Part shown: positions 64 to 13,605 of the stretch, one piece after another
Numbering within the stretch: position 1 is the first letter of the stretch
How the letters are laid out: each line of letters opens with the position of its first letter
Origin: a virus
Virus genome (UHGV): UHGV-0206243
DNA: 13,605 nt
Strand: one strand, 5' to 3'
Notes under the pieces: model-generated
Told to the model about the DNA's origin: nothing
The model's database searches: none
Seen by the model: the letters and a program-made list of their open reading frames with translations, nothing else
Translations under genes and position numbers: made by a program

Positions 64-1449
64 TTGGAGTCATTACCTGATACTCTGAGAAGAGAAACTT
101 TAGAATCATTTGCTATGATTATGCGATTCACTATACAGACAGTAAAAAATAATGATGAGTTGGTCGCGAAGGCCAATAATTTGATAAATGAATCTTTGAA
201 TGCTATTGTTAATTTTGATGAGTTTGAGGAGGCTAAATTAAATATTATTGCTGATAAATTGTGCCAGTTGATTATGCTTTTTAGAGATGCTGGCAATAAT
301 ATTATGTTTAGCCGGGCGACCTCAGAAAACTTACGCAGATTTATATATGAATGCCCATTGAAGAGAATCAAAGATTGCCTAACTAAAGTTGTTTCTATTT
401 CAGGAAATAAATTGTCTGCATCTAAAATAAGTTATGACTTCAGATATGATAAAAATAAAGGTGTGGTAAAGGTTTCGAGATTTGTTCTTCTAAATAAGAA
501 TGATGAAAGAATAGTTGAGCTGTTACCCAAAAAGAATAATGTCGTTGTATTGTCGGATGTTATCCCTCAAGAAGTATTTAGAGGATGTAAGTCTGATATC
601 TTAGAAATCATGAATCCTTATTCTTTGGGGCTATTCCCTGTCAATGAAGGACGTGGTTTTTATGTTTTTTTTGGAAATTCCTACAACCCTGTTGTTAACT
701 TTTTGTCACATGTTGTTTCTCTGGGAGTATTAATGCTTTCAAAAATGTTTGATGGCGAAAATGTTAATCATGTCAGCCCGTTGAGGGCATTTCCTCAGCG
801 TTATTATTTATTAGATAAAACAGTCAATCATGCTCAGTTAAATTCTGCTGATGGCTCTGAGTTGGCGGAGATTCTGAAGAAAAATACAAAAATAACAGAA
901 AACATAAACCTTCTTCTCGCTGAATTTAACTTAGCGGTTGATATAGTTAGAGTTAATGACATAATTCATAAGATAGTTATAAACCAAGATGCTGTTAATT
1001 TAGAATTGACAGATGTAGGGTTTGGAATATCACAAGTGTTGCCTGTCTTGGTTCAAGCTTATTTGTCACCAAAGGGCTCGATTACAATAATAGAACAACC
1101 AGAAATACATTTGCATCCTAAAATGCAGGCATGGTTAACTGACGCATTAATTAAAATATCTATGCAAGAAAAGAAAATTTTTATTATTGAAACACATAGT
1201 GATGCATTAGTTAGACGGATTAGATTAAGAATTGTTGATGAATCAAGCGAACTTACTGAGGACCATGTGGCAATCTATCATCTTGAGCGAGATGAAGAGG
1301 GAACATCAACCTTACTAAATAGAGTGGCTGTGAATTCTGATGGAGATATCACATGGCCAAATGAGTTTATGGATGTTGAGATTCAGGATACAATTAGAAT
1401 ACAGGAATTAAAAATACAAAAAATAATGAACTCAAAGGGAGTTCATTGA
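64..1449 (+). CDS. Hypothetical ABC/SMC-type ATPase C-terminal-module protein (signature-like, Walker-B-like and H-loop motifs; no Walker A); candidate defence component
   Basis: 461-codon ORF in about one-third-GC DNA. C-terminus reads GFGISQVLPVL...ITIIEQPEIHLHP...IFIIETHSDAL, resembling the signature/Walker B/H-loop end of AAA_21/DUF3696-type ATPases. No GxxxxGK[ST] anywhere. Start is uncertain: TTG at 64 follows an in-frame stop at 46-48, first ATG is at 112, and no clear Shine-Dalgarno precedes either. Confidence 0.6.
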   Translation: MESLPDTLRRETLESFAMIMRFTIQTVKNNDELVAKANNLINESLNAIVNFDEFEEAKLNIIADKLCQLIMLFRDAGNNIMFSRATSENLRRFIYECPLKRIKDCLTKVVSISGNKLSASKISYDFRYDKNKGVVKVSRFVLLNKNDERIVELLPKKNNVVVLSDVIPQEVFRGCKSDILEIMNPYSLGLFPVNEGRGFYVFFGNSYNPVVNFLSHVVSLGVLMLSKMFDGENVNHVSPLRAFPQRYYLLDKTVNHAQLNSADGSELAEILKKNTKITENINLLLAEFNLAVDIVRVNDIIHKIVINQDAVNLELTDVGFGISQVLPVLVQAYLSPKGSITIIEQPEIHLHPKMQAWLTDALIKISMQEKKIFIIETHSDALVRRIRLRIVDESSELTEDHVAIYHLERDEEGTSTLLNRVAVNSDGDITWPNEFMDVEIQDTIRIQELKIQKIMNSKGVH

Positions 1450-1450
1450 T

Positions 1451-2452
1451 ATGCTTTGTGCTGTTTGTTTGTGTCCTGAATTTGTTGCTGCTAATATTTC
1501 TGATGTTAAAGTTTTTAGCGGTTTTTTTATTGAAACCATTGTTAATGGTGAAAATGAGTTGATTCTTGATGCTGATGGAAAAATTCGCTTAGGTTATTTA
1601 AAGTCTTGCGGAAACAACAAGGATTCTTTTTTGTTTTTTAAGAAGTGGGAGTCTGAGTTATCTAAAGCTCCTTCAGGCAAGATATTGCGTACACCAGTGC
1701 CGAATAGTTCTGAGGATATTAAGGATATAGTTGTTTGTGCAGTTGCTAATGCAGCCACTACTTTTGATAAGCATATCGTAGTGTTAGATAATAATAGTTA
1801 CTCTGGATATATTGATGAATTAATCAGGCAAAGGATTAATTTGTTAAATCTTAATAGTATAAGCTTAATATCAAAGGATGGTCGAGTGCAGCGTCCTTTG
1901 AATTTTATAAAGTTTGATAGTGATTTATCTTGGGTGCTTCAAAGATTGGGGCGTCGCTCTGCTAAAGGATATGGTGAAGATGATTTTAATGATTTTATAC
2001 GGGATATGTTATTAGCTAAGAATTATGAGGTAAAAGATCAAACTAGAGAGGGAGAGTCTCAATCTGGTAAAAGTGCGGGTGAATTAGATCTTGTTATTGA
2101 AGATAAAGGAAATCTATTTGCTATAATAGAAGCATTGATTTTAAAATCTCTAGATCAAGCTAACATATTAAAGCATTATTCAAAGCTAATTGGTAACTAT
2201 AATCCTATTAATGTTAAACGCTTGTTTTTAATTGCTTATTATACTGGTGCAAAATTTGATGCTTGGTGTGAGAGATACATTGATTATCTAAAAGAGATTA
2301 CTCCGGTAGATATTGGTGTAGAATCTCATGAGATAGTTGGGATTAAAGAAGTGGAGACTCCATATATAGGTTTGAGAAAAATTGAACATCATTTTAGATA
2401 TGCGGGAGAACATTATTTTTGTGTTCATTATGCAGTCAAGATGGCTCGGTGA
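1451..2452 (+). CDS. Hypothetical protein, putative effector partner (possible PD-(D/E)xK-like nuclease core)
   Basis: 333-codon ORF. Shine-Dalgarno AAAGGGAG sits about 10 nt upstream, inside the 3' end of the preceding gene, and the ATG is 2 nt after that gene's TGA. Segment GELDLVIEDKGNLFAIIEALILK resembles the beta-strand core of PD-(D/E)xK nucleases but is not canonical. AT-rich like its neighbour. Confidence 0.6.
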   Translation: MLCAVCLCPEFVAANISDVKVFSGFFIETIVNGENELILDADGKIRLGYLKSCGNNKDSFLFFKKWESELSKAPSGKILRTPVPNSSEDIKDIVVCAVANAATTFDKHIVVLDNNSYSGYIDELIRQRINLLNLNSISLISKDGRVQRPLNFIKFDSDLSWVLQRLGRRSAKGYGEDDFNDFIRDMLLAKNYEVKDQTREGESQSGKSAGELDLVIEDKGNLFAIIEALILKSLDQANILKHYSKLIGNYNPINVKRLFLIAYYTGAKFDAWCERYIDYLKEITPVDIGVESHEIVGIKEVETPYIGLRKIEHHFRYAGEHYFCVHYAVKMAR

Positions 2453-2464
2453 TGTTTAATATGA

Positions 2465-2490
2465 ATGCACCTATAGGGTGCATCATTTTG
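2465..2490 (+). terminator. Candidate intrinsic terminator after the cargo operon
   Basis: Inverted repeat ATGCACC / GGTGCAT around a 5-nt loop, followed by CATTTTG, starting 12 nt after the stop at 2450-2452. The T-run is short, so this is weak. Confidence 0.35.
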
Positions 2491-2589
2491 CATGTTTAAA
2501 TACGTTCTCTATGTATGTGCGCTAGGCTTGACTGGCGCGCTTGTACTATGTTTATGCAACTGCATTAAAACCGACCCATGAAGCGGGCG

Positions 2590-2608
2590 GGCGAGGCGGG
2601 GAAAGCAC
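2590..2608. other. cos: P2-type cos cohesive-end sequence
   Basis: GGCGAGGCGGGGAAAGCAC matches the 19-nt P2 cohesive end as I recall it, and it lies just beyond the 3' end of Q as in P2. Confidence 0.8.
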
Positions 2609-2750
2609 TGCGCGCTGGCGGTGGTGCTGATTTTATTTTTTCAGCGTCTGAGCGCGTCGTGATGGCGTTTGGATTGTTCGCCGGGGCGTTGGTGTGTATG
2701 CGGGCTGTTTTGTGCGGTGGTGAGCGTGTGAGGGCGTGATGACGGGGTGT

Positions 2751-2773
2751 AAAAAAGCCGCCCGCAGGCGGCG
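2751..2773 (-). terminator. Intrinsic terminator downstream of portal gene Q
   Basis: On the minus strand: GCCGCC-TGCG-GGCGGC hairpin followed by TTTTTT, a few nt after the Q stop at 2778-2780. Confidence 0.7.
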
Positions 2774-2777
2774 ATGT

Positions 2778-3812
2778 TCAGCCGTTGTCAGTGTCCAGTG
2801 AGTAGTTTTTAAAGCGGATGACCTCCTGACCGAGCCAGCCGTTTATCTCGCGGATCCTGTCCTGTAACGGGATAAGCTCATTGCGGACAAAGACCTTTGC
2901 CACTTTCTCAATATCACCCAGCGACCCGACGTTCTCCGGCTTGCCGCCCATCAACTGAAAAGGGATGCGGTGCGCGTCCAGCAGGTCTGCGGCGCTGGCT
3001 TTTTTGATATTAAAAAAATCGTCCTTCGTTGCCACTTCACTGAGCGGGATAATTTTAATACCGTCGGCTTTTCCCTGTGGGGCGTAGAGAAACAGGTTTT
3101 TAAAGTTGTTGCGGCCTTTCGACTTCACCATGTTTTCGCGAAGCATTTCGATATCGTTGCGATCCTGCACGGCATCGGTGACGTACATGATATATCCGGC
3201 ATGAGCGCCGTTTTCGTAATACTTGCGGCGGAACAGCGTGGCCGACTCATTCAGCCAGGCAGAGTTAAGGGCGCTGAGATATTCCGGCAGGCCGTACAGC
3301 TCCTGATTGATATCCGGCTCCAGCAGGTGAAACACGGAGCCGGGCGCGAAAGGTGTCGGCTCGTTGAAGGATGGCACCCACCAGTAAACATCCTCCTCCA
3401 CGCCACGGCGGGTATATTTTGCCGGTGAGGTTTCCAGTCTGATGACCTTACCGGTAGTGCTGTAGCGCTTTTCCAGAAACGCATTACCGAACACCAGAAA
3501 ATCCAGCACAAAGCGGCTGAAATCCTGCTGGGAAAGCCACGGATGCGGGATAAATGTCGAGGCCAGAATATTACGTTTGACGTAAATCGGTGAGCTGTGA
3601 TGCACGGCAGCACGCAGGCTTTTTGCCAGACCGGTAAAGCTGACCGGTGGCTCATACCATCTGCCGTTACTGATGCATTCGACGTAATCCAGAATGTCAC
3701 GGCGGTCGAGTACCGGCACCGGCTCACCAAAGGTGAATGCCTCCATTTTCGGGGCGCTGGTGGTCATTGTTTTTGCCGCAGGTTGCGGTGTTTTCCCTTT
3801 TTTCTTGCTCAT
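2778..3812 (-). CDS. Q: Capsid portal protein
   Basis: 344 aa, the length I recall for P2 gpQ. Sequence matches recalled P2 portal; its ATG overlaps the stop of the upstream terminase remnant. Confidence 0.92.
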   Translation of the reverse strand: MSKKKGKTPQPAAKTMTTSAPKMEAFTFGEPVPVLDRRDILDYVECISNGRWYEPPVSFTGLAKSLRAAVHHSSPIYVKRNILASTFIPHPWLSQQDFSRFVLDFLVFGNAFLEKRYSTTGKVIRLETSPAKYTRRGVEEDVYWWVPSFNEPTPFAPGSVFHLLEPDINQELYGLPEYLSALNSAWLNESATLFRRKYYENGAHAGYIMYVTDAVQDRNDIEMLRENMVKSKGRNNFKNLFLYAPQGKADGIKIIPLSEVATKDDFFNIKKASAADLLDAHRIPFQLMGGKPENVGSLGDIEKVAKVFVRNELIPLQDRIREINGWLGQEVIRFKNYSLDTDNG

Positions 3813-4774
3813 CAGTAAAACTCCAGAATGGTGGATGTCAGCGGGGTGCTGATACCGGCGGTGAGTGGCTCATTTAACAGGGCGTGCATGGTCGCCCAGG
3901 CGAGGTCGGCGTGGCTGGCTTCCTCGCTGCGGCTGGCCTCATAGGTGGCGCTGCGTCCGCTGCTGGTCATGGTCTTGCGGATAGCCATAAACGAGCTGGT
4001 GATGTCGGTGGCGCTGACGTCATATTCCAGACAGCCACGGCGGATAACGTCTTTTGCCTTGAGCACCATTGCGGTTTTCATTTCCGGCGTGTAGCGGATA
4101 TCGCGCGCGGCGGGATAGAACGAGCGCACGAGCTGGAACACGCCGACACCGAGGCCGGTGGCATCAATACCGATGTATTCGACGTTGTATTTTTCAGTGA
4201 GTTTGCGGATGGATTCCGCCTGGGTGGCAAAGTCCATGCCTTTCCACTGATGGCGCTCAAGTATTCTGAATTTGCCACCGGCCACCACCGGCGGTGCCAG
4301 CACCACGCATCCGGCGCTGTCGCCACGGTGTGACGGGTCGTAACCAATCCATACCGGGCGGGAGCCGAACGGATTGGTGGCAAACGGCGCGTAGTCTTCC
4401 CATTCTTCCAGCGTGTCGACCATGCAGCGTTGCAGCTCCTCGAACGGGAACACTGACGCCTTGTCGTCAACAAATTCACACATGAACAGGTTTTTAAAAT
4501 CGTCGGCGCTGTTTTCGCGTTTGAGCTGCTCAATGTCGAACAGCGTGCAGCCGCCTTTCAGCGCGTCCTCAATGGTGACAATCTGCCGCCACTGACCGTC
4601 CGCACAGAGAAGCCCACCGGCAAGAGCGTTATGACTGACGTCGATTTCCACGCGTTCGGCGGCGCTGGCGCGTCCCCGGTTGAACAGTTCACCCGACCAG
4701 AACGGGTAGGCGTCGTGCGCCAGCGTGGACGGGGTGGAGAAATAGGTCGAGCGCAGGTGACTCTGTGAGGCCAT
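3812..4774 (-). pseudogene. P: Terminase large subunit, C-terminal (nuclease-domain) remnant; N-terminal ATPase region deleted
   Basis: 320-codon ORF ending directly at the Q start, as in the P2 P-Q operon. Contains nuclease-domain-like segments (IGIDATGLGVGV, DPSHRGDSAGCVV) but no Walker A. Recalled P2 gpP is about 590 aa. The frame is closed by a stop at 4787-4789, right beside the lysB start. Confidence 0.8.
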
Positions 4775-4783
4775 ACCTGAACC

Positions 4784-5209
4784 ATGTCAAAGCTGATGAT
4801 TGTGCTGGTTGTGTTGTTATCACTGGCGGTGGCCGGTCTGTTTCTGGCGAAGCATGAAAACGCCAGCCTGCGCGCCTTGCTGGACAGGGCGAACAACGTC
4901 GCCAGTGAACAGCAGACGACCATCACCATGCTGAAAAATCAGCTTCATGTTGCCATCACCAGGGCAGACAAAAACGAGCTGGCGCAGGTGGCTCTGCGTC
5001 AGGAACTGGAGAACGCCGCGAAGCGTGAAGCACAGCGCGAGAAAACCATCACGAGATTACTCAATGAAAACGAAGATTTTCGCCGCTGGTACGGTGCTGA
5101 CCTGCCTGATGCTGTGCGCCGGTTGCACCAGCGCCCCGCCTGCACTGACGCCAGTGATTGTCGCCAACGCCTGCCCGAAAGTGAGTCTTTGCCCGATGCC
5201 GGGCAGTGA
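4784..5209 (+). CDS. lysB: Rz-like i-spanin LysB
   Basis: 141 aa with an N-terminal hydrophobic segment (MSKLMIVLVVLLSLAVAGLFL), matching recalled P2 LysB. Confidence 0.9.
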   Translation: MSKLMIVLVVLLSLAVAGLFLAKHENASLRALLDRANNVASEQQTTITMLKNQLHVAITRADKNELAQVALRQELENAAKREAQREKTITRLLNENEDFRRWYGADLPDAVRRLHQRPACTDASDCRQRLPESESLPDAGQ

Positions 5210-5354
5210 CCCGGAGACGAACGGCGATTTAAGTGCCGATATCCGGCAGCTTGAGAACGCGCTGGCACGCTGTGCCAGCCAGGTAAAAATGATTAAACAC
5301 TGTCAGGACGAAAACGATGCTCAAACCCGACAGCCTGCGCAGGGCGCTGACTGA
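5064..5354 (+). CDS. lysC: Rz1-like o-spanin lipoprotein LysC
   Basis: 96 codons in the +1 frame, starting inside lysB and running into R. Lipoprotein signal MKTKIFAAGTVLTCLMLCAGC. The track ORF starts upstream at 4947; the start at 5064 is chosen from the signal peptide. Confidence 0.8.
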   Translation: MKTKIFAAGTVLTCLMLCAGCTSAPPALTPVIVANACPKVSLCPMPGSDPETNGDLSADIRQLENALARCASQVKMIKHCQDENDAQTRQPAQGAD

Positions 5355-5784
5355 TGCCGTCACGGTGCTGAAAACCAGTCCAGAGATGCTGCGGATATTC
5401 GTGGATAACGGGAGTATTGCCTCCACACTGGCGACGTCGCTGTCATTCGAAAAGCGTTACACGCTCAATGTGATTGTGACCGACTTTACCGGTGATTTTG
5501 ACCTGCTCATCGTGCCGGTGCTGGCGTGGCTGCGGGAAAATCAGCCCGACATCATGACCACCGACGAAGGCCAGAAAAAGGGCTTCACGTTTTATGCGGA
5601 CATCAACAATGACAGCAGCTTTGATATCAGCATCAGCCTGATGCTGACCGAGCGCACGCTGGTCAGTGAGGTTGACGGCGCGCTGCATGTGAAGAATATC
5701 CCGGAACCACCGCCGCCGGAGCCGGTCACCCGCCCGATGGAGCTTTATATCAATGGTGAACTGGTGAGTAAGTGGGATGAATGA
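5317..5784 (+). CDS. R: Tail completion protein R
   Basis: 155 aa; matches recalled P2 gpR in length and sequence. Confidence 0.9.
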   Translation: MLKPDSLRRALTDAVTVLKTSPEMLRIFVDNGSIASTLATSLSFEKRYTLNVIVTDFTGDFDLLIVPVLAWLRENQPDIMTTDEGQKKGFTFYADINNDSSFDISISLMLTERTLVSEVDGALHVKNIPEPPPPEPVTRPMELYINGELVSKWDE

Positions 5785-6229
5785 GTTTAAGCGTTTTGAA
5801 GACCGGCTGACCGGACTGATTGAGTCGCTGTCACCATCAGGGCGTCGGCGACTGAGTGCCGAACTGGCGAAACGTCTGCGGCAGAGTCAGCAGCATCGTG
5901 TGATGGCACAGAAAGCCCCGGACGGCACCCCCTACGCGCCACGCCAGCAGCAGAGCGCCAGAAAAAAGACCGGTCGCGTTAAGCGAAAAATGTTTGCGAA
6001 ACTTATCACCAGTCGTTTTTTGCATATCCGCGCCAGCCCTGAACAGGCATCAATGGAGTTTTACGGCGGGAAGTCACCGAAAATCGCCAGTGTGCATCAG
6101 TTCGGTCTGTCGGAAGAAACCCGGAAAGACGGTAAGAAAATTGATTATCCGGCGCGTCCTCTGCTCGGCTTTACCGGTGAGGATGTGCAGATGATTGAAG
6201 AGATTATCCTGGCTCACCTCGACCGTTAG
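5777..6229 (+). CDS. S: Tail completion protein S
   Basis: 150 aa; matches recalled P2 gpS; overlaps the R stop. Confidence 0.9.
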   Translation: MNEFKRFEDRLTGLIESLSPSGRRRLSAELAKRLRQSQQHRVMAQKAPDGTPYAPRQQQSARKKTGRVKRKMFAKLITSRFLHIRASPEQASMEFYGGKSPKIASVHQFGLSEETRKDGKKIDYPARPLLGFTGEDVQMIEEIILAHLDR

Positions 6230-6230
6230 T

Positions 6231-6248
6231 TGTGCCATTCCCGACACA
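6231..6248 (+). promoter_or_regulatory. Candidate Ogr-dependent late promoter activator site (TGT-N12-ACA) upstream of V
   Basis: TGTGCCATTCCCGACACA is an exact TGT-N12-ACA dyad in the S-V intergenic gap, the form described for P2 late promoters. Its spacing to the V ATG at 6296 is tighter than I would expect. Confidence 0.45.
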
Positions 6249-6295
6249 TCATCGTTACATTGCCGCCGGTATGACCCGGAGGCATCCTTCCCGTT

Positions 6296-6931
6296 ATGAA
6301 CACTCTCGCAAATATCCAGGAACTCGCGCGCGCACTGCGCAACATGATTCGTACCGGCCTTGTCGTCGAAACCAACCTTAAAGCCGGTCGCTGCCGTGTG
6401 CAGACCGGCGGCATGTGCACCGACTGGCTTCAGTGGCTGACCCATCGCGCCGGACGTTCGCGCACATGGTGGGCACCTTCCGTGGGGGAACAGGTGCTGA
6501 TTCTGGCCGTGGGCGGTGAACTCGACACGGCGTTCGTTCTGCCGGGGATTTATTCCGGCGATAACCCCGCGCCGTCTGCGTCGGCGGATGCCCTGCATAT
6601 CCGTTTCCCTGACGGGGCGGTGATTGAGTATGAACCTGAAACCAGTGCACTGACGGTAAGCGGAATTAAAACGGCCAGCGTGACGGCTTCTGATTCTGTT
6701 ACTGCCACGGTGCCGGTGGTCATGGTGAAAGCGTCAACCCGCGTCACCCTGGACACACCGGAGGTGGTCTGCACCAACAGGCTGATTACCGGCACGCTGG
6801 AAGTACAGAAGGGTGGGACGATGCGCGGCAACATTGAACACACCGGCGGTGAACTCTCATCAAACGGTAAGGTACTGCATACCCATAAACACCCCGGCGA
6901 CAGCGGCGGCACAACCGGGAGTCCTCTATGA
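6296..6931 (+). CDS. V: Baseplate spike/assembly protein V
   Basis: 211 aa; matches recalled P2 gpV. Confidence 0.92.
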   Translation: MNTLANIQELARALRNMIRTGLVVETNLKAGRCRVQTGGMCTDWLQWLTHRAGRSRTWWAPSVGEQVLILAVGGELDTAFVLPGIYSGDNPAPSASADALHIRFPDGAVIEYEPETSALTVSGIKTASVTASDSVTATVPVVMVKASTRVTLDTPEVVCTNRLITGTLEVQKGGTMRGNIEHTGGELSSNGKVLHTHKHPGDSGGTTGSPL

Positions 6932-7275
6932 CAGCGCGTTATCTCGGAATGAATCGCAGTGATGGCCTGACTGTCACTGACCTTGAGCATATCAGCCAGA
7001 GTATCGGCGATATCCTGCGCACACCGGTCGGCTCACGGGTGATGCGTCGTGATTACGGCTCGTTGCTGGCGTCAATGATTGACCAGCCGCAGACTCCGGC
7101 GCTTGAGTTGCAGATTAAGGTCGCCTGTTACATGGCAGTGCTGAAATGGGAACCCCGCGTCACCCTGTCATCCGTCACCACTGAGCGCAGTTTTGACGGG
7201 CGAATGACGGTCACGTTAACCGGCCAGCACAACGACACCGGCCAGCCACTTTCGTTAACCATCCCTGTGAGTTGA
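6928..7275 (+). CDS. W: Baseplate protein W (gp25-like)
   Basis: 115 aa; matches recalled P2 gpW; GGGAG Shine-Dalgarno upstream; ATG overlaps the V stop. Confidence 0.92.
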   Translation: MTARYLGMNRSDGLTVTDLEHISQSIGDILRTPVGSRVMRRDYGSLLASMIDQPQTPALELQIKVACYMAVLKWEPRVTLSSVTTERSFDGRMTVTLTGQHNDTGQPLSLTIPVS

Positions 7276-7279
7276 AACC

Positions 7280-7384
7280 ATGCCGATTATCGACCTGAAC
7301 CAGCTACCCGCACCGGATGTGGTCGAGGAGCTGGACTTTGAAACCATTCTCGCCGAACGCAAGGCGACACTGATTTCCCTTTAA
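7280..7384 (+). pseudogene. J: Baseplate protein J, N-terminal 34-codon stub
   Basis: [34 protein letters not shown] matches the recalled P2 gpJ N-terminus, then hits TAA at 7382-7384 where sheath-gene sequence begins out of frame. Confidence 0.85.
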
Positions 7385-8193
7385 CCGGTGTTAAACCGCG
7401 TATTCTTGGTGTGCCGGGGCTGGATACCAAAGAGGTGGCTGTTGCACTGGCATCAGTCTGTCAGAAGCTGCGCGCTTTCGGGTATATCAGCGCATGGGGC
7501 TGTAAAACCATTTCCGAGGTGAAAGCCTACCGCCAGAATTTCAGCCAGCGTGAGCTGATGGTCATCTGGCCGGATTTCCTCGCATGGGATACAGTCAACA
7601 GTACCACCGCCACCGCGTATGCCACCGCCCGTGCGCTGGGTCTGCGTGCCAAAATCGACCAGGAGCAGGGCTGGCATAAAACGCTGTCCAACGTCGGGGT
7701 AAACGGTGTTACCGGCATCAGCGCGTCCGTATTCTGGGATTTGCAGGAGTCCGGTACCGATGCTGACCTGCTTAACGAGTCTGGCGTCACAACGCTGATT
7801 CGCCGCGACGGTTTCCGATTCTGGGGTAACCGTACCTGCTCCGATGACCCGCTGTTCCTCTTTGAAAACTACACCCGCACCGCGCAGGTGTTGGCCGACA
7901 CGATGGCTGAGGCGCACATGTGGGCGGTGGATAAGCCCATCACCGCAACGCTGATTCGCGACATCGTTGACGGCATCAATGCCAAATTTCGTGAGCTGAA
8001 AACAAACGGCTATATCGTGGATGCGACCTGCTGGTTCAGCGAAGAATCCAACGATGCGGAAACCCTTAAGGCCGGAAAACTGTATATCGACTACGACTAT
8101 ACACCGGTGCCTCCTCTCGAAAACCTGACCCTGCGCCAGCGTATTACCGATAAATACCTGGCAAATCTGGTCACCTCGGTTAACAGCAATTAA
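7384..8193 (+). pseudogene. FI: Tail sheath protein FI, C-terminal portion only
   Basis: Sheath-frame homology ([18 protein letters not shown]... to ...[10 protein letters not shown]) begins at about 7384; the track ORF starts at GTG 7411. About 260-270 codons remain of a recalled ~396-aa protein. No native start or promoter. Confidence 0.85.
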
Positions 8194-8205
8194 GGAGCCT
8201 GACCG

Positions 8206-8724
8206 ATGGCAATGCCGCGCAAACTCAAGTTAATGAACGTCTTTCTGAACGGCTACAGCTATCAGGGCGTTGCAAAGTCCGTCACGCTGCCAAAACTGAC
8301 CCGTAAGCTCGAAAACTATCGCGGTGCGGGGATGAACGGCAGCGCACCGGTAGACCTCGGCCTTGATGATGATGCGCTGTCAATGGAGTGGTCGCTCGGG
8401 GGCTTCCCGGATTCGGTTATCTGGGAGCTTTACGCCGCAACCGGCGTGGATGCCGTGCCGATTCGTTTTGCAGGCTCTTACCAGCGCGACGATACCGGCG
8501 AAACGGTGGCCGTCGAAGTGGTCATGCGTGGACGTCAGAAAGAAATCGACACCGGCGAGGGCAAACAGGGAGAAGACACCGAGTCGAAAATCTCCGTGGT
8601 CTGCACCTATTTCCGGCTGACGATGGACGGTAAGGAGCTGGTCGAAATCGACACCATCAACATGATTGAGAAGGTGAACGGCGTCGACCGGCTGGAGCAA
8701 CACCGCCGCAATATCGGCCTGTGA
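8206..8724 (+). CDS. FII: Tail tube protein FII
   Basis: 172 aa; matches recalled P2 gpFII; AAGGAG Shine-Dalgarno upstream. Confidence 0.92.
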   Translation: MAMPRKLKLMNVFLNGYSYQGVAKSVTLPKLTRKLENYRGAGMNGSAPVDLGLDDDALSMEWSLGGFPDSVIWELYAATGVDAVPIRFAGSYQRDDTGETVAVEVVMRGRQKEIDTGEGKQGEDTESKISVVCTYFRLTMDGKELVEIDTINMIEKVNGVDRLEQHRRNIGL

Positions 8725-8780
8725 TTTTCATCCGGTCAGCCTGGCTGACCGGTTAACACCGATTCAGAAGTGAGAAAACC

Positions 8781-9056
8781 ATGAACAAAGAAAATGTGAT
8801 TACCCTGGACAATCCGGTCAAGCGTGGTGAGCAGGTTATCGAACAGGTCACGCTGATGAAACCCAATGCCGGGACGCTGCGCGGTGTCAGTCTGGCTGCG
8901 GTCGCGAACTCTGAAGTCGATGCACTGATTAAGGTGCTGCCGCGCATGACGGCACCGATGCTGACCGAGCAGGAAGTCGCCGCGCTGGAACTGCCTGACC
9001 TTGTGGCGCTGGCCGGTAAGGTGGTCGGTTTTTTGTCGCCGAACTCGGTGCAGTGA
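8781..9056 (+). CDS. E: Tail assembly chaperone E
   Basis: 91 aa; matches recalled P2 gpE. Confidence 0.9.
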   Translation: MNKENVITLDNPVKRGEQVIEQVTLMKPNAGTLRGVSLAAVANSEVDALIKVLPRMTAPMLTEQEVAALELPDLVALAGKVVGFLSPNSVQ

Positions 9057-9208
9057 CGTTTCCGAAAAATCTCTCGGTCGATGACCTGATGGCAGATGTG
9101 GCTGTGATATTTCACTGGCCGCCATCAGAACTGTATCCCATGAGCCTGACCGAACTCATCACATGGCGCGAAAAGGCGCTCCGGCGAAGCGGAAACACGA
9201 ATGAGTAA
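8781..9208 (+). CDS. E': Tail assembly chaperone E+E' (programmed -1 frameshift product; slip site TTTTTTG at 9029..9035)
   Basis: I translated the -1 frame from the T6G slip site by hand: it is open to TAA at 9206-9208 and ends ...LTELITWREKALRRSGNTNE, about 142 aa in total, overlapping the T start. Confidence 0.8.
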
Positions 9209-11648
9209 CAATGTAAAATTACAGGTATTGCTCAGGGCTGTTGACCAGGCATCCCGCCCGTTTAAATCCATCCGTACAGCGAGCAAGTCGCTGTCGGGGG
9301 ATATCCGGGAAACACAAAAATCACTGCGCGAGCTGAACGGTCAGGCGTCCCGTATTGAGGGATTTCGCAAGACCAGTGCGCAGCTCGCCGTGACTGGTCA
9401 TGCACTTGAAAAGGCTCGGCAGGAAGCCGAAGCCCTTGCCACACAGTTTAAAAACACCGAACGTCCGACCCGTGCTCAGGCGAAAGTGCTGGAGTCCGCG
9501 AAGCGTGCGGCGGAGGACTTACAGGCGAAATATAACCGCCTGACGGATTCCGTTAAACGCCAGCAACGGGAACTGGCCGCTGTGGGAATTAATACCCGCA
9601 ATCTTGCACATGATGAGCAGGGACTGAAAAACCGTATCAGTGAAACCACCGCACAGCTTAACCGTCAGCGCGACGCGCTGGCGCGTGTCAGTGCGCAACA
9701 GGCAAAACTTAACGCAGTCAAACAGCGTTATCAGGCAGGCAAGGAACTGGCCGGAAATATGGCCTCGGTGGGCGCTGCCGGTGTGGGGATTGCGGCGGCG
9801 GGAACGATGGCCGGAGTTAAGCTGCTGATGCCCGGTTATGAGTTTGCGCAGAAAAACTCAGAATTGCAGGCCGTGCTCGGTGTGGCAAAAGATTCCGCCG
9901 AAATGGCCGCGCTACGCAAACAGGCGCGCCAGCTCGGCGACAATACCGCCGCCTCGGCGGATGATGCGGCCGGTGCGCAGATTATTATTGCGAAAGCCGG
10001 TGGGGATGTTGATGCCATTCAGGCGGCAACGCCGGTCACGCTGAACATGGCGCTGGCGAACCGCCGCACGATGGAAGAAAACGCCGCCCTGCTGATGGGG
10101 ATGAAATCCGCCTTTCAGCTTTCAAACGATAAGGTCGCTCATATCGGGGATGTTCTCTCCATGACGATGAACAAAACCGCCGCCGATTTTGACGGCATGA
10201 GCGATGCGCTGACCTATGCCGCACCTGTGGCAAAAAATGCCGGTGTCAGCATTGAAGAAACCGCCGCGATGGTCGGGGCGCTGCATGATGCAAAAATCAC
10301 AGGCTCAATGGCGGGGACGGGAAGCCGTGCCGTGTTAAGCCGCCTGCAGGCACCGACGGGAAAAGCATGGGATGCACTCAAAGAGCTTGGAGTGAAAACC
10401 TCAGACAGCAAGGGAAACACCCGGCCAATATTTACCATTCTGAAAGAAATGCAGGCCAGTTTTGAGAAAAACCGGCTCGGTACTGCCCAGCAGGCTGAAT
10501 ACATGAAAACTATTTTCGGGGAGGAGGCCAGCTCAGCCGCCGCCGTGCTGATGACTGCCGCCTCAACCGGAAAGCTGGACAAACTGGCCGCTGCGTTTAA
10601 AGCCTCAGACGGAAAGACCGCAGAGCTGGTAAATATCATGCAGGACAACCTCGGCGGTGACTTTAAGGAGTTTCAGTCCGCTTATGAGGCGGTGGGGACT
10701 GACCTGTTTGACCAGCAGGAAGGCGCACTGCGTAAGCTCACGCAGACGGCCACAAAGTATGTGTTAAAACTCGACGGCTGGATCCAGAAAAACAAATCAC
10801 TGGCGTCAACCATCGGCCTTATTGTCGGTGGTGCACTGGCGCTGACTGGCATCATCGGTGCAATTGGTCTTGTAGCCTGGCCGGTTATCACCGGCATCAA
10901 TGCCATCATCGCGGCAGCAGGCGCAATGGGGGCAGTCTTCACGACGGTTGGCAGTGCTGTTATGACGGCCATCGGGGCGATTAGCTGGCCGGTTGTGGCC
11001 GTGGTGGCCGCCATTGTCGCCGGGGCGTTGCTTATCCGTAAATACTGGGAGCCTGTCAGCGCATTCTTTGGCGGTGTGGTGGAAGGGCTGAAAGCGGCAT
11101 TTGCGCCGGTGGGGGAACTGTTCACGCCACTTAAGCCGGTGTTTGACTGGCTGGGCGAAAAGTTACAGGCCGCGTGGCAGTGGTTTAAAAACCTGATTGC
11201 CCCGGTCAAAGCCACCCAGGACACCCTGAACCGTTGCCGTGACACGGGCGTCATGTTCGGGCAGGCACTGGCTGACGCGCTGATGCTGCCGCTTAATGCG
11301 TTCAACAAACTGCGCGGCGGTATTGACTGGGTACTGGAAAAACTCGGCGTCATCAACAAAGAGTCAGGCACGCTTGACCAGACTGCCGCCAGAACTCATG
11401 CCGCCACGTATGGCACCGGTGGTTATATTCCGGCGACCAGCTCTTATGCTGGCTATCAGGCTTATCAGCCAGTTACGGCACCGGCTGGCCGCTCTTATGT
11501 GGACCAGAGTAAAAACGAATATCACATCAGCCTGACGGGGGGTACTGCGCCGGGGACACAGCTTGACCGCCAGTTACAGGATGCGCTCGAAAAATACGAG
11601 CGGGATAAACGTGCGCGCGCCCGTGCCAGCATGATGCATGACGGTTAA
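9201..11648 (+). CDS. T: Tail tape measure protein T
   Basis: 815 aa; coiled-coil-like N-terminal region and a Gly/Ala-rich hydrophobic C-terminal region; matches recalled P2 gpT. Confidence 0.92.
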   Translation: MSNNVKLQVLLRAVDQASRPFKSIRTASKSLSGDIRETQKSLRELNGQASRIEGFRKTSAQLAVTGHALEKARQEAEALATQFKNTERPTRAQAKVLESAKRAAEDLQAKYNRLTDSVKRQQRELAAVGINTRNLAHDEQGLKNRISETTAQLNRQRDALARVSAQQAKLNAVKQRYQAGKELAGNMASVGAAGVGIAAAGTMAGVKLLMPGYEFAQKNSELQAVLGVAKDSAEMAALRKQARQLGDNTAASADDAAGAQIIIAKAGGDVDAIQAATPVTLNMALANRRTMEENAALLMGMKSAFQLSNDKVAHIGDVLSMTMNKTAADFDGMSDALTYAAPVAKNAGVSIEETAAMVGALHDAKITGSMAGTGSRAVLSRLQAPTGKAWDALKELGVKTSDSKGNTRPIFTILKEMQASFEKNRLGTAQQAEYMKTIFGEEASSAAAVLMTAASTGKLDKLAAAFKASDGKTAELVNIMQDNLGGDFKEFQSAYEAVGTDLFDQQEGALRKLTQTATKYVLKLDGWIQKNKSLASTIGLIVGGALALTGIIGAIGLVAWPVITGINAIIAAAGAMGAVFTTVGSAVMTAIGAISWPVVAVVAAIVAGALLIRKYWEPVSAFFGGVVEGLKAAFAPVGELFTPLKPVFDWLGEKLQAAWQWFKNLIAPVKATQDTLNRCRDTGVMFGQALADALMLPLNAFNKLRGGIDWVLEKLGVINKESGTLDQTAARTHAATYGTGGYIPATSSYAGYQAYQPVTAPAGRSYVDQSKNEYHISLTGGTAPGTQLDRQLQDALEKYERDKRARARASMMHDG

Positions 11649-11662
11649 GGAGGTGACGAAAA

Positions 11663-12142
11663 ATGATGCTCGCGTTAGGTATGTTTGTTTTTATGCGCCA
11701 GACGCTGCCACACCAGACCATGCAGCGTGAATCAGATTATCGCTGGCCGTCAAATTCCCGTATCGGTAAACGGGATGCCTTTCAGTTTCTCGGTGTTGGC
11801 GAGGAAAACATCACGCTGGCCGGTGTGCTTTATCCCGAACTGACCGGCGGCAAGCTGACGATGACCACGCTCAGGCTGATGGCAGAGGAAGGTCGGGCGT
11901 GGCCGTTGCTGGATGGTACCGGCATGATTTACGGCATGTATGTCATCAGTAAGGTGAGTGAAACAGGGAGTATTTTCTTTGCAGACGGCACACCCCGAAA
12001 AATTGATTTTACGCTGTCGCTCACCCGCGTTGATGAATCACTGGCCGCGCTTTATGGCGATATCGGTAAACAGGCGGAATCGCTCATCGGTAAGGCTGGC
12101 AGTATGGCGACTAAATTCACGGGTATGACGGAGGCGGGATAA
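11663..12142 (+). CDS. U: Tail protein U
   Basis: 159 aa; AAGGAGG Shine-Dalgarno upstream; matches recalled P2 gpU. Confidence 0.9.
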   Translation: MMLALGMFVFMRQTLPHQTMQRESDYRWPSNSRIGKRDAFQFLGVGEENITLAGVLYPELTGGKLTMTTLRLMAEEGRAWPLLDGTGMIYGMYVISKVSETGSIFFADGTPRKIDFTLSLTRVDESLAALYGDIGKQAESLIGKAGSMATKFTGMTEAG

Positions 12143-13305
12143 TGCTGGATGCGCTGACATTTGATGCAGGCAGTACGCTGACGCCGGATTACATGCTGAT
12201 GCTCGACAGCAGGGATATTACCGGCAATATCAGCGACCGTCTGATGAGCATGACCCTGACGGATAACCGGGGCTTTGAGGCTGACCAGCTTGATATTGAA
12301 CTGAACGACGCCGACGGGCAGGTCGGGCTACCGATTCGTGGCGCTGTCCTGACGGTGTATATCGGCTGGAAAGGTTTTGCCCTGGTATGCAAAGGGAAAT
12401 TTACCGTTGATGAGGTTGAACACCGGGGCGCGCCGGATGTGGTTACCATCCGCGCCCGGAGTGCAGATTTCCGCGGGACGCTTAATTCCCGCCGGGAAGG
12501 CTCCTGGCATGACACCACGCTCGGCGCGATTGTTGAGGCGATAGCCTCCCGTAACAGGCTGGAAGCCAGTGTCGCTCCGTCACTGGCCGGAATTAAAATT
12601 CCGCATATCGACCAGTCGCAGGAGTCTGATGCGAAATTCCTGACCCGCCTTGCTGAACGCAACGGCGGTGAGGTGTCGGTAAAAATGGGAAAACTGCTGT
12701 TTCTCAAAGCGGGGCAGGGGGTGACGGCCAGCGGTAAAAAAATCCCGCAGATTACCATCACCCGCAGCGACGGCGACCGTCATCATTTTGCGATTGCTGA
12801 CCGTGGAGCTTACACCGGCGTAACGGCAAAGTGGTTACACACCAAAGACCCGAAGCCGCAAAAGCAGAAGGTAAAACTGAAACGCAAAAAGAAAGAGAAA
12901 CACCTGCGCGCACTGGAGCACCCAAAAGCGAAACCGGTCAGGCAGAAGAAAGCGCCAAAAGTACCGGAAGCGCGCGAAGGTGAATATATGGCCGGTGAGG
13001 CTGACAATGTTTTTGCCCTGACCACGGTATATGCCACGAAAGCGCAGGCCATGCGCGCCGCTCAGGCGAAGTGGGATAAACTGCAACGGGGCGTTGCGGA
13101 GTTCTCCATCAGCCTGGCTACCGGTCGGGCAGATATTTACACGGAAACACCGGTTAAAGTGTCAGGCTTTAAGCGCGTCATAGACGAGCAGGACTGGACA
13201 ATCACTAAGGTGACACATTTTCTGAATAATAGCGGCTTCACGACGTCCCTGGAGCTTGAGGTCAGGCTTTCTGATGTGGAGTACGAAACAGAAGATGATG
13301 AGTGA
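12142..13305 (+). CDS. D: Tail protein D
   Basis: 387 aa; GGAGG Shine-Dalgarno upstream; matches recalled P2 gpD, including an internal lysine-rich stretch. Confidence 0.9.
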   Translation: MLDALTFDAGSTLTPDYMLMLDSRDITGNISDRLMSMTLTDNRGFEADQLDIELNDADGQVGLPIRGAVLTVYIGWKGFALVCKGKFTVDEVEHRGAPDVVTIRARSADFRGTLNSRREGSWHDTTLGAIVEAIASRNRLEASVAPSLAGIKIPHIDQSQESDAKFLTRLAERNGGEVSVKMGKLLFLKAGQGVTASGKKIPQITITRSDGDRHHFAIADRGAYTGVTAKWLHTKDPKPQKQKVKLKRKKKEKHLRALEHPKAKPVRQKKAPKVPEAREGEYMAGEADNVFALTTVYATKAQAMRAAQAKWDKLQRGVAEFSISLATGRADIYTETPVKVSGFKRVIDEQDWTITKVTHFLNNSGFTTSLELEVRLSDVEYETEDDE

Positions 13306-13323
13306 TGTTTTTATTTTATCTAT

Positions 13324-13352
13324 TTGTTTTATAAGGATAAATTAACTAAAAT
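13324..13352 (+). promoter_or_regulatory. Candidate sigma70 promoter for ogr
   Basis: TTGTTT, 17-nt spacer, TAAAAT in the AT-rich D-ogr gap; a GAAGAGG Shine-Dalgarno and the ogr ATG follow. Confidence 0.45.
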
Positions 13353-13386
13353 GGCACCATCAACAAAACCGGAAGAGGTGCTCGCG

Positions 13387-13605
13387 ATGTTTCATTGTCC
13401 TTTATGCCAGCATGCCGCACATGCGCGTACAAGCCGCTATATCACTGACACGACAAAAGAGCGTTATCACCAGTGCCAGAACGTGAATTGCAGCGCCACG
13501 TTCATCACTTATGAGTCGGTACAGAGATACATCGTGAAGCCGGGAGAAGTCCACGCCGTGAGGCCGCACCCGTTGCCGTCAGGGCAGCAAATTATGTGGA
13601 TGTAA
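13387..13605 (+). CDS. ogr: Late transcription activator Ogr (zinc-finger)
   Basis: 72 aa from MFHCPLCQHA... to ...QQIMWM with a Cys-x2-Cys...Cys-x4-Cys pattern; matches recalled P2 Ogr. The track ORF's TTG start at 13324 lies in the promoter region and is rejected. Confidence 0.9.
   Translation: MFHCPLCQHAAHARTSRYITDTTKERYHQCQNVNCSATFITYESVQRYIVKPGEVHAVRPHPLPSGQQIMWM

Follow-up and report, generated by a model that had tools for sequence, protein, structure and literature searches.

A junction between the terminase gene interior and lysB as a probable deletion scar in a dead P2-type prophage of Escherichia coli

Phage P2 (Peduovirus P2, NC_001895) and the intact P2-like prophages of strains E308 and H15 are the closest described relatives of the locus analysed here. 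They share its gene order and orientation at 96–99% nucleotide identity. Short-homology illegitimate recombination, to which the locus can also be compared, has reportedly been measured in E. coli through aberrant lambda excision. Grounded prophages decay mainly via deletions (review PMC6379469).

The window, the whole stretch of 13,605 nt that we analysed, is catalogued as a virus genome (UHGV-0206243). Its likeness to P2-like prophages covers cos-Q-P', lysB-lysC-R-S, V-W-J' and 'FI-FII-E-T-U-D-ogr, with cargo genes between A and cos. Primes mark the truncated ends of P, J and FI. An exact look-up of the 320-aa terminase product encoded in the window found a public contig (L009, ENA ERZ19637427) that equals the window at 13605/13605 positions. 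A second contig (L003, ENA ERZ28639330) equals window 78–13605 at 13528/13528 positions and extends to the host flanks. The features of the window are as follows.

1–77, no strand assigned: terminal 77 nt of IS1, ending in ...AAGTTGGAGTCATTACC (IS1 inverted repeat) and interrupting the cargo ATPase gene
64–2452, plus strand: cargo pair in the P2 old/tin position, between A and cos (L003 12323–14993)
2561–2608, plus strand: joined cos site (cosR/cosL), equal to P2 33546–33593; window 2590 onward equals P2 1 onward
2778–3812, minus strand: portal gene Q, full length, 344 aa, from the ORF and comparison with P2
3812–4780, minus strand: terminase large-subunit remnant P'; P2 homology runs to 4780, and the ORF from Met271 (ATG 4774–4772) to the natural stop
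4779–4780, no strand assigned: deletion junction 1, shared GA, from three-way alignments with P2 and the E308 and H15 prophages
4781–4796, plus strand: last bases of lysA, 18 nt when the GA is included, overlapping the lysB start; P2 7934 is window 4796
4784–5209, plus strand: lysB (Rz-like spanin), full length, 141 aa, with 100% nucleotide identity to lysB of H15, E6474 and 101EVA
5064–5354, plus strand: lysC (Rz1-like spanin), 96 aa, Pfam LysC 1.4e-16, equal to P2 8202–8492
5317–6229, plus strand: tail completion genes R (5317–5784) and S (5777–6229), intact, from ORFs and P2 comparison
6231–6248, plus strand: TGT-N12-ACA box of late-promoter type upstream of V, the sole one left near a late operon
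6296–7275, plus strand: baseplate genes V (6296–6931) and W (6928–7275), intact, from ORFs and P2 comparison
7280–7384, plus strand: J', the first 34 codons of baseplate gene J, closed by a TAA at junction 2
7382–7388, no strand assigned: deletion junction 2, from J codon 35 to the FI interior, overlap TAACCGG (FI) / TACCCGG (J)
7389–8193, plus strand: tail sheath remnant 'FI, without about the first 127 codons; ORF 7411–8193, 260 aa
8206–13605, plus strand: FII, E, T, U, D and ogr, all full length, from P2 alignment and ORFs

Colinearity with P2 falls into four blocks at 96–98% identity by blastn. The first, window 2590–4780, equals P2 1–2189 at 97.1% and holds cosL, Q and the 3' part of P. 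The second, window 4779–6231, equals P2 7917–9369 at 96.1% and holds the lysA end, lysB, lysC, R and S. The third is window 6296–7388, equal to P2 10308–11400, with V, W and the first 109 nt of J. The fourth runs from the FI interior to ogr (window 7382–13605, P2 18031–24254). The two halves of cos are joined, the state to be expected of a prophage. The spacer between S and V (6232–6295) is short and has no P2 orf30; the H15 and E308 prophages share this form, which marks it as natural variation rather than damage.

In L003 the remnant spans about 19 kb and lies between cpxP (LTXXQ) and fieF-pfkA. Its order is int, B without the first 114 nt, orf80-83, A, the cargo pair, cos, Q and P', followed by lysB, lysC, R, S, V, W, J', 'FI, FII, E, T, U, D and ogr. 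Compared with P2 it has lost three intervals. Two lie in the window, P2 2190–7918 at junction 1 and P2 11401–18037 at junction 2. A third deletion, outside the window (L003 18965–19149), took C, cox, orf78 and the first 114 nt of B, and with them the immunity repressor and the excision factor. Absent are O, N, M, L, X, Y, K, lysA, I, H and G, and P, J and FI are truncated. The element is thus a dead P2-type prophage in the E. coli chromosome, with at least three deletions and an incomplete functional gene set. Unlike P2, it would be predicted from its gene content to make no heads, tails or plaques, to be unable to lyse and to be unable to excise with Cox.

At junction 1 (window 4760–4790) the plus strand reads ...GTGAGGCCATACCTGA followed directly by ACCATGTCAAAG.... 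On the minus strand, the ATG at 4774–4772 opens the 320-aa ORF (3812–4774). Its frame reads upstream through GGT TCA GGT CAT to a TGA at 4789–4787. On the plus strand, the ATG at 4784 opens the 141-aa ORF (4784–5209). A reading made from the sequence alone had placed the end of the terminase frame at 4787–4789, a few bases from the lysB ATG at 4784. Those coordinates are exact, and the observation of a P–lysB junction is confirmed.

The sequence-only reading had left the breakpoint and any microhomology to pairwise alignment with a complete P2-like genome. Aligned with P2 and with the E308 and H15 prophages, the junction is fixed by all three references at GA (4779–4780), a 2-bp overlap and the sole bases common to both flanks. 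Window 4780 is P2 2189 and window 4781 is P2 7919. Measured on P2 the gap is 5,729 bp; on the E308 and H15 prophages it comes to 5,723 and 5,728 bp, respectively. Both prophages have the uninterrupted arrangement. E308 is 98.9% identical on the P side, and H15 is 100% identical over 4779–5300 (the lysB side) and 98.7% identical over 4779–7388. On both sides order and orientation are those of P2, and the join shows neither inserted or filler DNA nor an inversion. These alignments support reading junction 1 as a probable deletion.

By the P2 feature table, the lost interval holds roughly the first 269 codons of P, the genes O, N, M, L, X, Y and K, the sites where P and O transcription begins with their shared activator site (P2 3016–3127), and lysA (P2 7509–7934) except for its last 18 nt. 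The claim that the whole block from P to lysA is missing therefore holds except for that lysA remnant (4779–4796). Removal of the whole head block had also been proposed; O, N, M and L are indeed gone, but Q and the C-terminal 320 residues of P survive. Genes moved elsewhere in the prophage would speak for rearrangement instead of loss. The 21-kb locus that comprises the entire remnant, from int to ogr, and its host flanks (L003/L011) has no copy of any gene that junction 1 removed.

What remains of the terminase is gpP residues 271–590, identical to P2 at 319/320 positions. P2 P extends to 2993, and the 5' 45% of the gene is missing. In Pfam terms P' keeps Terminase_6C whole and only profile positions 121–215 of Terminase_6N. 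It has neither Terminase_5/HTH nor the first 120 profile positions of the ATPase domain, both of which the full-length protein has (6N 2–215). With O, N, M and L absent and the terminase deprived of its N-terminal DNA-binding and Walker-A part, no head would be possible. LysB (141 aa) and LysC (96 aa) are intact and their partners, holin Y and endolysin K, are gone. Lysis would thus be impossible, and the surviving spanin pair would be harmless. The pair had been called an orphan; it is one in having no holin or endolysin, but it is not isolated, as R, S, V and W follow it. Loss of the lysis genes may have carried a selective advantage.

Transcription of the flanking genes was probably affected as well. 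By P2 promoter positions, junction 1 removed PP and PO, and junction 2 removed PF. Loss of both Ogr-dependent divergent late promoters would leave Q-P' and lysB-lysC-R-S promoterless, and no sigma-70-like promoter consensus occurs within 4300–5300. Both operons are accordingly predicted to be transcriptionally orphaned. The box at 6231–6248 is by its position a putative late promoter of V, for a motif with a chance expectation of 3.1 matches per window and one other match, at 693–710, inside a cargo gene.

Junction 1 is not the only lesion: J' meets 'FI at junction 2 (7382–7388), and another deletion lies outside the window. The 'FI product matches Pfam Phage_sheath_1 at profile positions 25–168 together with sheath_1C. 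An identical J–FI 18031 junction occurs in elements that differ by 2.5–5% (the related loci are L011–L020 and L022). In L020, at the same chromosomal site, the P–lysA block is intact and the J–FI junction already present. L020 is only about 97.5% identical to the window, so it is not the direct ancestor, and the order of the deletion events is merely suggested.

As a side observation, junction 2 gave rise to the sequence TTTAAC CGGT GTTAAA (7375–7398), in which two 6-bp arms form a perfect inverted repeat around a 4-nt spacer; neither parent sequence has the repeat whole.

The IS1 end at 1–77 is not part of a deletion. Both the window and L009 have their cargo ATPase gene interrupted by IS1, and in L003 the gene is intact and encodes 555 aa. 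Since L003 is otherwise identical, the IS1 insertion is younger than all three deletions. The ATPase, truncated here, is of the AAA_15/AAA_21 type (Pfam AAA_15, 7.6e-25), and its best PADLOC matches are NsnB (2.3e-51), HEC-03B, PDC-M55A and AriA. Its 333-aa partner (1451–2452) has no match in Pfam or PADLOC. The pair also occurs in E. coli E308, JX21CE8, PSJ-12 and N61. We regard it as a candidate defence pair of unclear type.

Junction 1 recurs, 100% identical, in independent assemblies, and its gene neighbourhood is shared by 19 of the 24 contigs read. By BLAST, none of 5,426 complete RefSeq E. coli genomes spans it. Exact-pattern scans of GTDB representative genomes and JGI metagenomes gave no match, and no INPHARED phage spans it. 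Neither the exact pre-deletion ancestor (more than 99.9% identical) nor an intermediate was found among the contigs read. The truncated P and J products are present in NCBI as DAH59292.1 and DAH59287.1, third-party annotations from a single 'Caudoviricetes sp.' MAG.

We conclude, with a probability of roughly 80%, that junction 1 is the scar of one illegitimate recombination event during decay of a P2-like prophage. Recombination of the non-homologous, RecA-independent type would have acted on a prophage integrated between cpxP and fieF. It would have joined P codon 269/270 (P2 2189) to P2 7919, a position 5 nt before lysB begins, using an overlap of at most the 2-bp GA and discarding about 5.73 kb. 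Junction 1 would then be one step of a stepwise decay, since the same element has two further deletions. The sequence-only reading spoke of one precise deletion. A single colinear deletion does explain the join, but its precision amounts to 2 bp of microhomology. An overlap of that length often arises by chance, so it argues only faintly for a microhomology-mediated event at junction 1. Sister junctions in related remnants show 0–13 nt of imperfect microhomology.

Several enzymes were considered as sources of the junction. A site-specific recombinase product was rejected: the flanks share only GA. The invertase and Int cores known to us gave no match at the breakpoints either, which we take as a lead only. 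Nicking by the P2 A protein was likewise rejected, its ori nick sequence (GCGCCTCG followed, across the nick, by GAGTCC) being unlike either flank.

Related remnants carry 2–5 deletions each, and some of their endpoints recur. A look-up of the 34-aa J' product returned one left end (...TTCCCTTTA; breakpoint ...CCCTTTA) joined to many right-hand partners. In P2 coordinates these lie at 13464 (H), at 18031, 18132, 18351 and 18476 (FI), at 21296 and 21630 (T), at 23830 (D) and at 24208 (ogr). The 34-aa look-up selects for a stop at codon 35, and we therefore ran a protein search of N-terminal J fragments, setting aside frameshift variants and adapter-contaminated sequences. This gave 17 distinct tails after Tyr35, compared with 1–2 true junctions at any other codon from 18 to 70. 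J codon 35 thus has at least 25 different partners, at least 8 at the DNA level and 17 by protein tails. All Tyr-class tails that map exactly or within one residue have TAC or TAT, often TACC, at the partner site, which is microhomology with TTTACCCGG of J. The remnants are not one clone, as they occupy three attachment sites (fieF, yegQ, pflA) and differ by 2–5% in sequence.

Other positions recur too. D 23482–23486 is joined to P 2185 (L007), to P 2505 (complete genome GmF046) and to J35. The P 2113–2118 breakpoint is found in L014, L019 and the complete genome 26561 (L027), and ogr 24052 is joined to J35, J45 and about J90. FI 18132/3, P 1501/3 and A 28278/9 were each seen at two or three loci. 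The loci with recurring breakpoints are L007, L012, L014, L016, L017, L019, L020, L022, L026 and L027. In a table of 27 junctions, TA lies in the overlap at 9 of the 16 not selected via J35, and TA makes up 4.45% of P2 dinucleotides. The J site falls in the 8-nt loop of a predicted imperfect hairpin of unremarkable stability (z -1.5), whose arms read GGCGAC/CTGAT/TTCC...GGAA/ATCAG/GTCGCC. P2 11229 is also listed among the exactly recurring breakpoints. By eye, and from the motifs as we know them, neither Chi, Ter, gyrase and topoisomerase I motifs nor integron-core, invertase (gix/cix) and IS200/IS605 target motifs fit the recurrent sites consistently. A J-truncation BLAST survey of complete genomes gave a partial best hit in 12 of 1,511 records. 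Searches of JGI metagenomes for alternative J junctions returned only unrelated low-GC marine phage contigs. Four of these (L021, L023–L025) share an exact 20-mer, GCGACACTGATTTCCCTTTA, with P2 J in unrelated surroundings, and were set aside as chance matches.

These endpoints hint, tentatively, that P2-type prophage decay may be non-random, with a few nucleotide positions serving as recurrent deletion endpoints for many partners. To our knowledge, exact breakpoint recurrence is not a general feature of short-homology illegitimate recombination. Junction 1 could then be the product of a site-preferring deletion process on P2-like prophages, one with break or template-switch points, possibly at pause or hairpin sites, and partners chosen through short, mostly TA-containing microhomology. 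The dominance of J codon 35, the other recurring positions, the excess of TA and the hairpin loop at the J site all favour such a process, and the P end of junction 1 (2189) lies 4 nt from the break at 2185 in a second, independent remnant, L007. That coincidence, however, was partly created by the look-up itself, which returns the same 320-aa product for breaks from 12 to perhaps at least 180 nt upstream of Met271. The overlap at junction 1 is GA and not TA, and its two ends fold no better than shuffled sequence (z -0.3 and -1.5). Nor is the J hairpin statistically exceptional. IMG/VR scans gave no match to a further junction at P 2189 or P 2185, and the lysA end (7917) appears in no other junction. 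The link of junction 1 to the recurrence pattern is weak, and we consider this origin doubtful.

Other readings bear on the number of events, on their cause and on the reality of the join. The gap could have come from two or more successive smaller deletions, the last erasing the earlier scars, and the several separate deletions of this element and its relatives make such a history conceivable. L020, at the same site, nevertheless retains the whole P–lysA block, and no intermediate was found among the contigs read, so that one event is the more economical reading. We think successive deletions unlikely. Domestication, with the deletion kept because the remnant was useful as a tailocin or as a fixed carrier of a defence system, would fit the intactness of all retained genes, the candidate defence pair in the cargo position and the removal of lethal functions along with holin, endolysin and head genes. 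Q, lysB, lysC, R, S, V, W, FII, E, T, U, D and ogr have their full P2 length and no internal stop. Neither stops nor frameshifts occur among the retained genes, and decay is so far limited to three deletions plus the IS1 copy in the gene for the cargo ATPase. The element may therefore be young, or selection may act on part of it, in which case its decay would not have been purely neutral. Yet intact ORFs may reflect nothing but youth, and a tailocin is excluded by a J cut at codon 35, the absence of I, H and G and a sheath without its N-terminal third. There is also no holin or endolysin, the PO and PF promoters are gone, and in the sub-lineage to which the window belongs IS1 has disrupted the cargo ATPase, all of which makes domestication quite improbable. 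An assembly or binning chimera might be suspected from the identity of the window to a metagenome contig that ends in IS1, but separate assemblies and samples yielded the very same join (ERZ28639330, ERZ19637427, with 17 more contigs of the same architecture), and a 2-bp overlap cannot mislead a k-mer assembler. An IS-mediated adjacent deletion fares no better, as no IS sequence lies at or beside 4779–4781 or anywhere in 4700–4860, the sole IS1 end being 4.7 kb away. Artefact and IS-mediated deletion are both extremely improbable.

The preferred reading thus remains a single illegitimate recombination event. For a non-viable remnant catalogued as a virus, the junction matters chiefly for annotation. 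The ORFs for terminase, J and sheath encode only parts of these proteins, and the spanin genes have been left without lysis partners. If the reuse of endpoints is real, it would suggest a specific break or template-switch mechanism, for example replication pausing at a hairpin loop, and junction 1 would be one product of that process. Large assembly collections permit cataloguing of prophage deletion breakpoints, and the catalogue assembled here shows strong exact reuse. Should that reuse hold, P2 remnants would form a natural data set on how illegitimate deletions are targeted in bacterial chromosomes.

Three known systems place the junction in context. R-type tailocins likewise consist of a P2-type tail gene cluster without head genes. 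In contrast to them, the remnant has an incomplete baseplate, fibres and sheath and has lost the lysis cassette and two of three late promoters. With J' at 34 codons, I, H and G absent, FI lacking about 127 codons and Y and K absent, it was rejected as a tailocin locus. A paper on an ST131 'tailocin' concerns an intact prophage and has no bearing on the remnant (PMC9205054). The ogrK-yegZ remnant of E. coli K-12 is, like the present element, a P2-type product of decay by deletion that keeps the ogr end beside the host junction. That remnant sits at the yegQ site, starts inside D at about P2 23742 and is about 0.5 kb long, whereas the present element lies at cpxP/fieF and spans about 19 kb. Its breakpoints differ, and it was rejected as a match for junction 1. 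The closest likeness in kind is to short-homology illegitimate recombination: a non-homologous join in direct order, with zero to a few shared base pairs and no recombinase site. In this sense junction 1 is one more example of a familiar event, a scar such as prophage decay ordinarily leaves.
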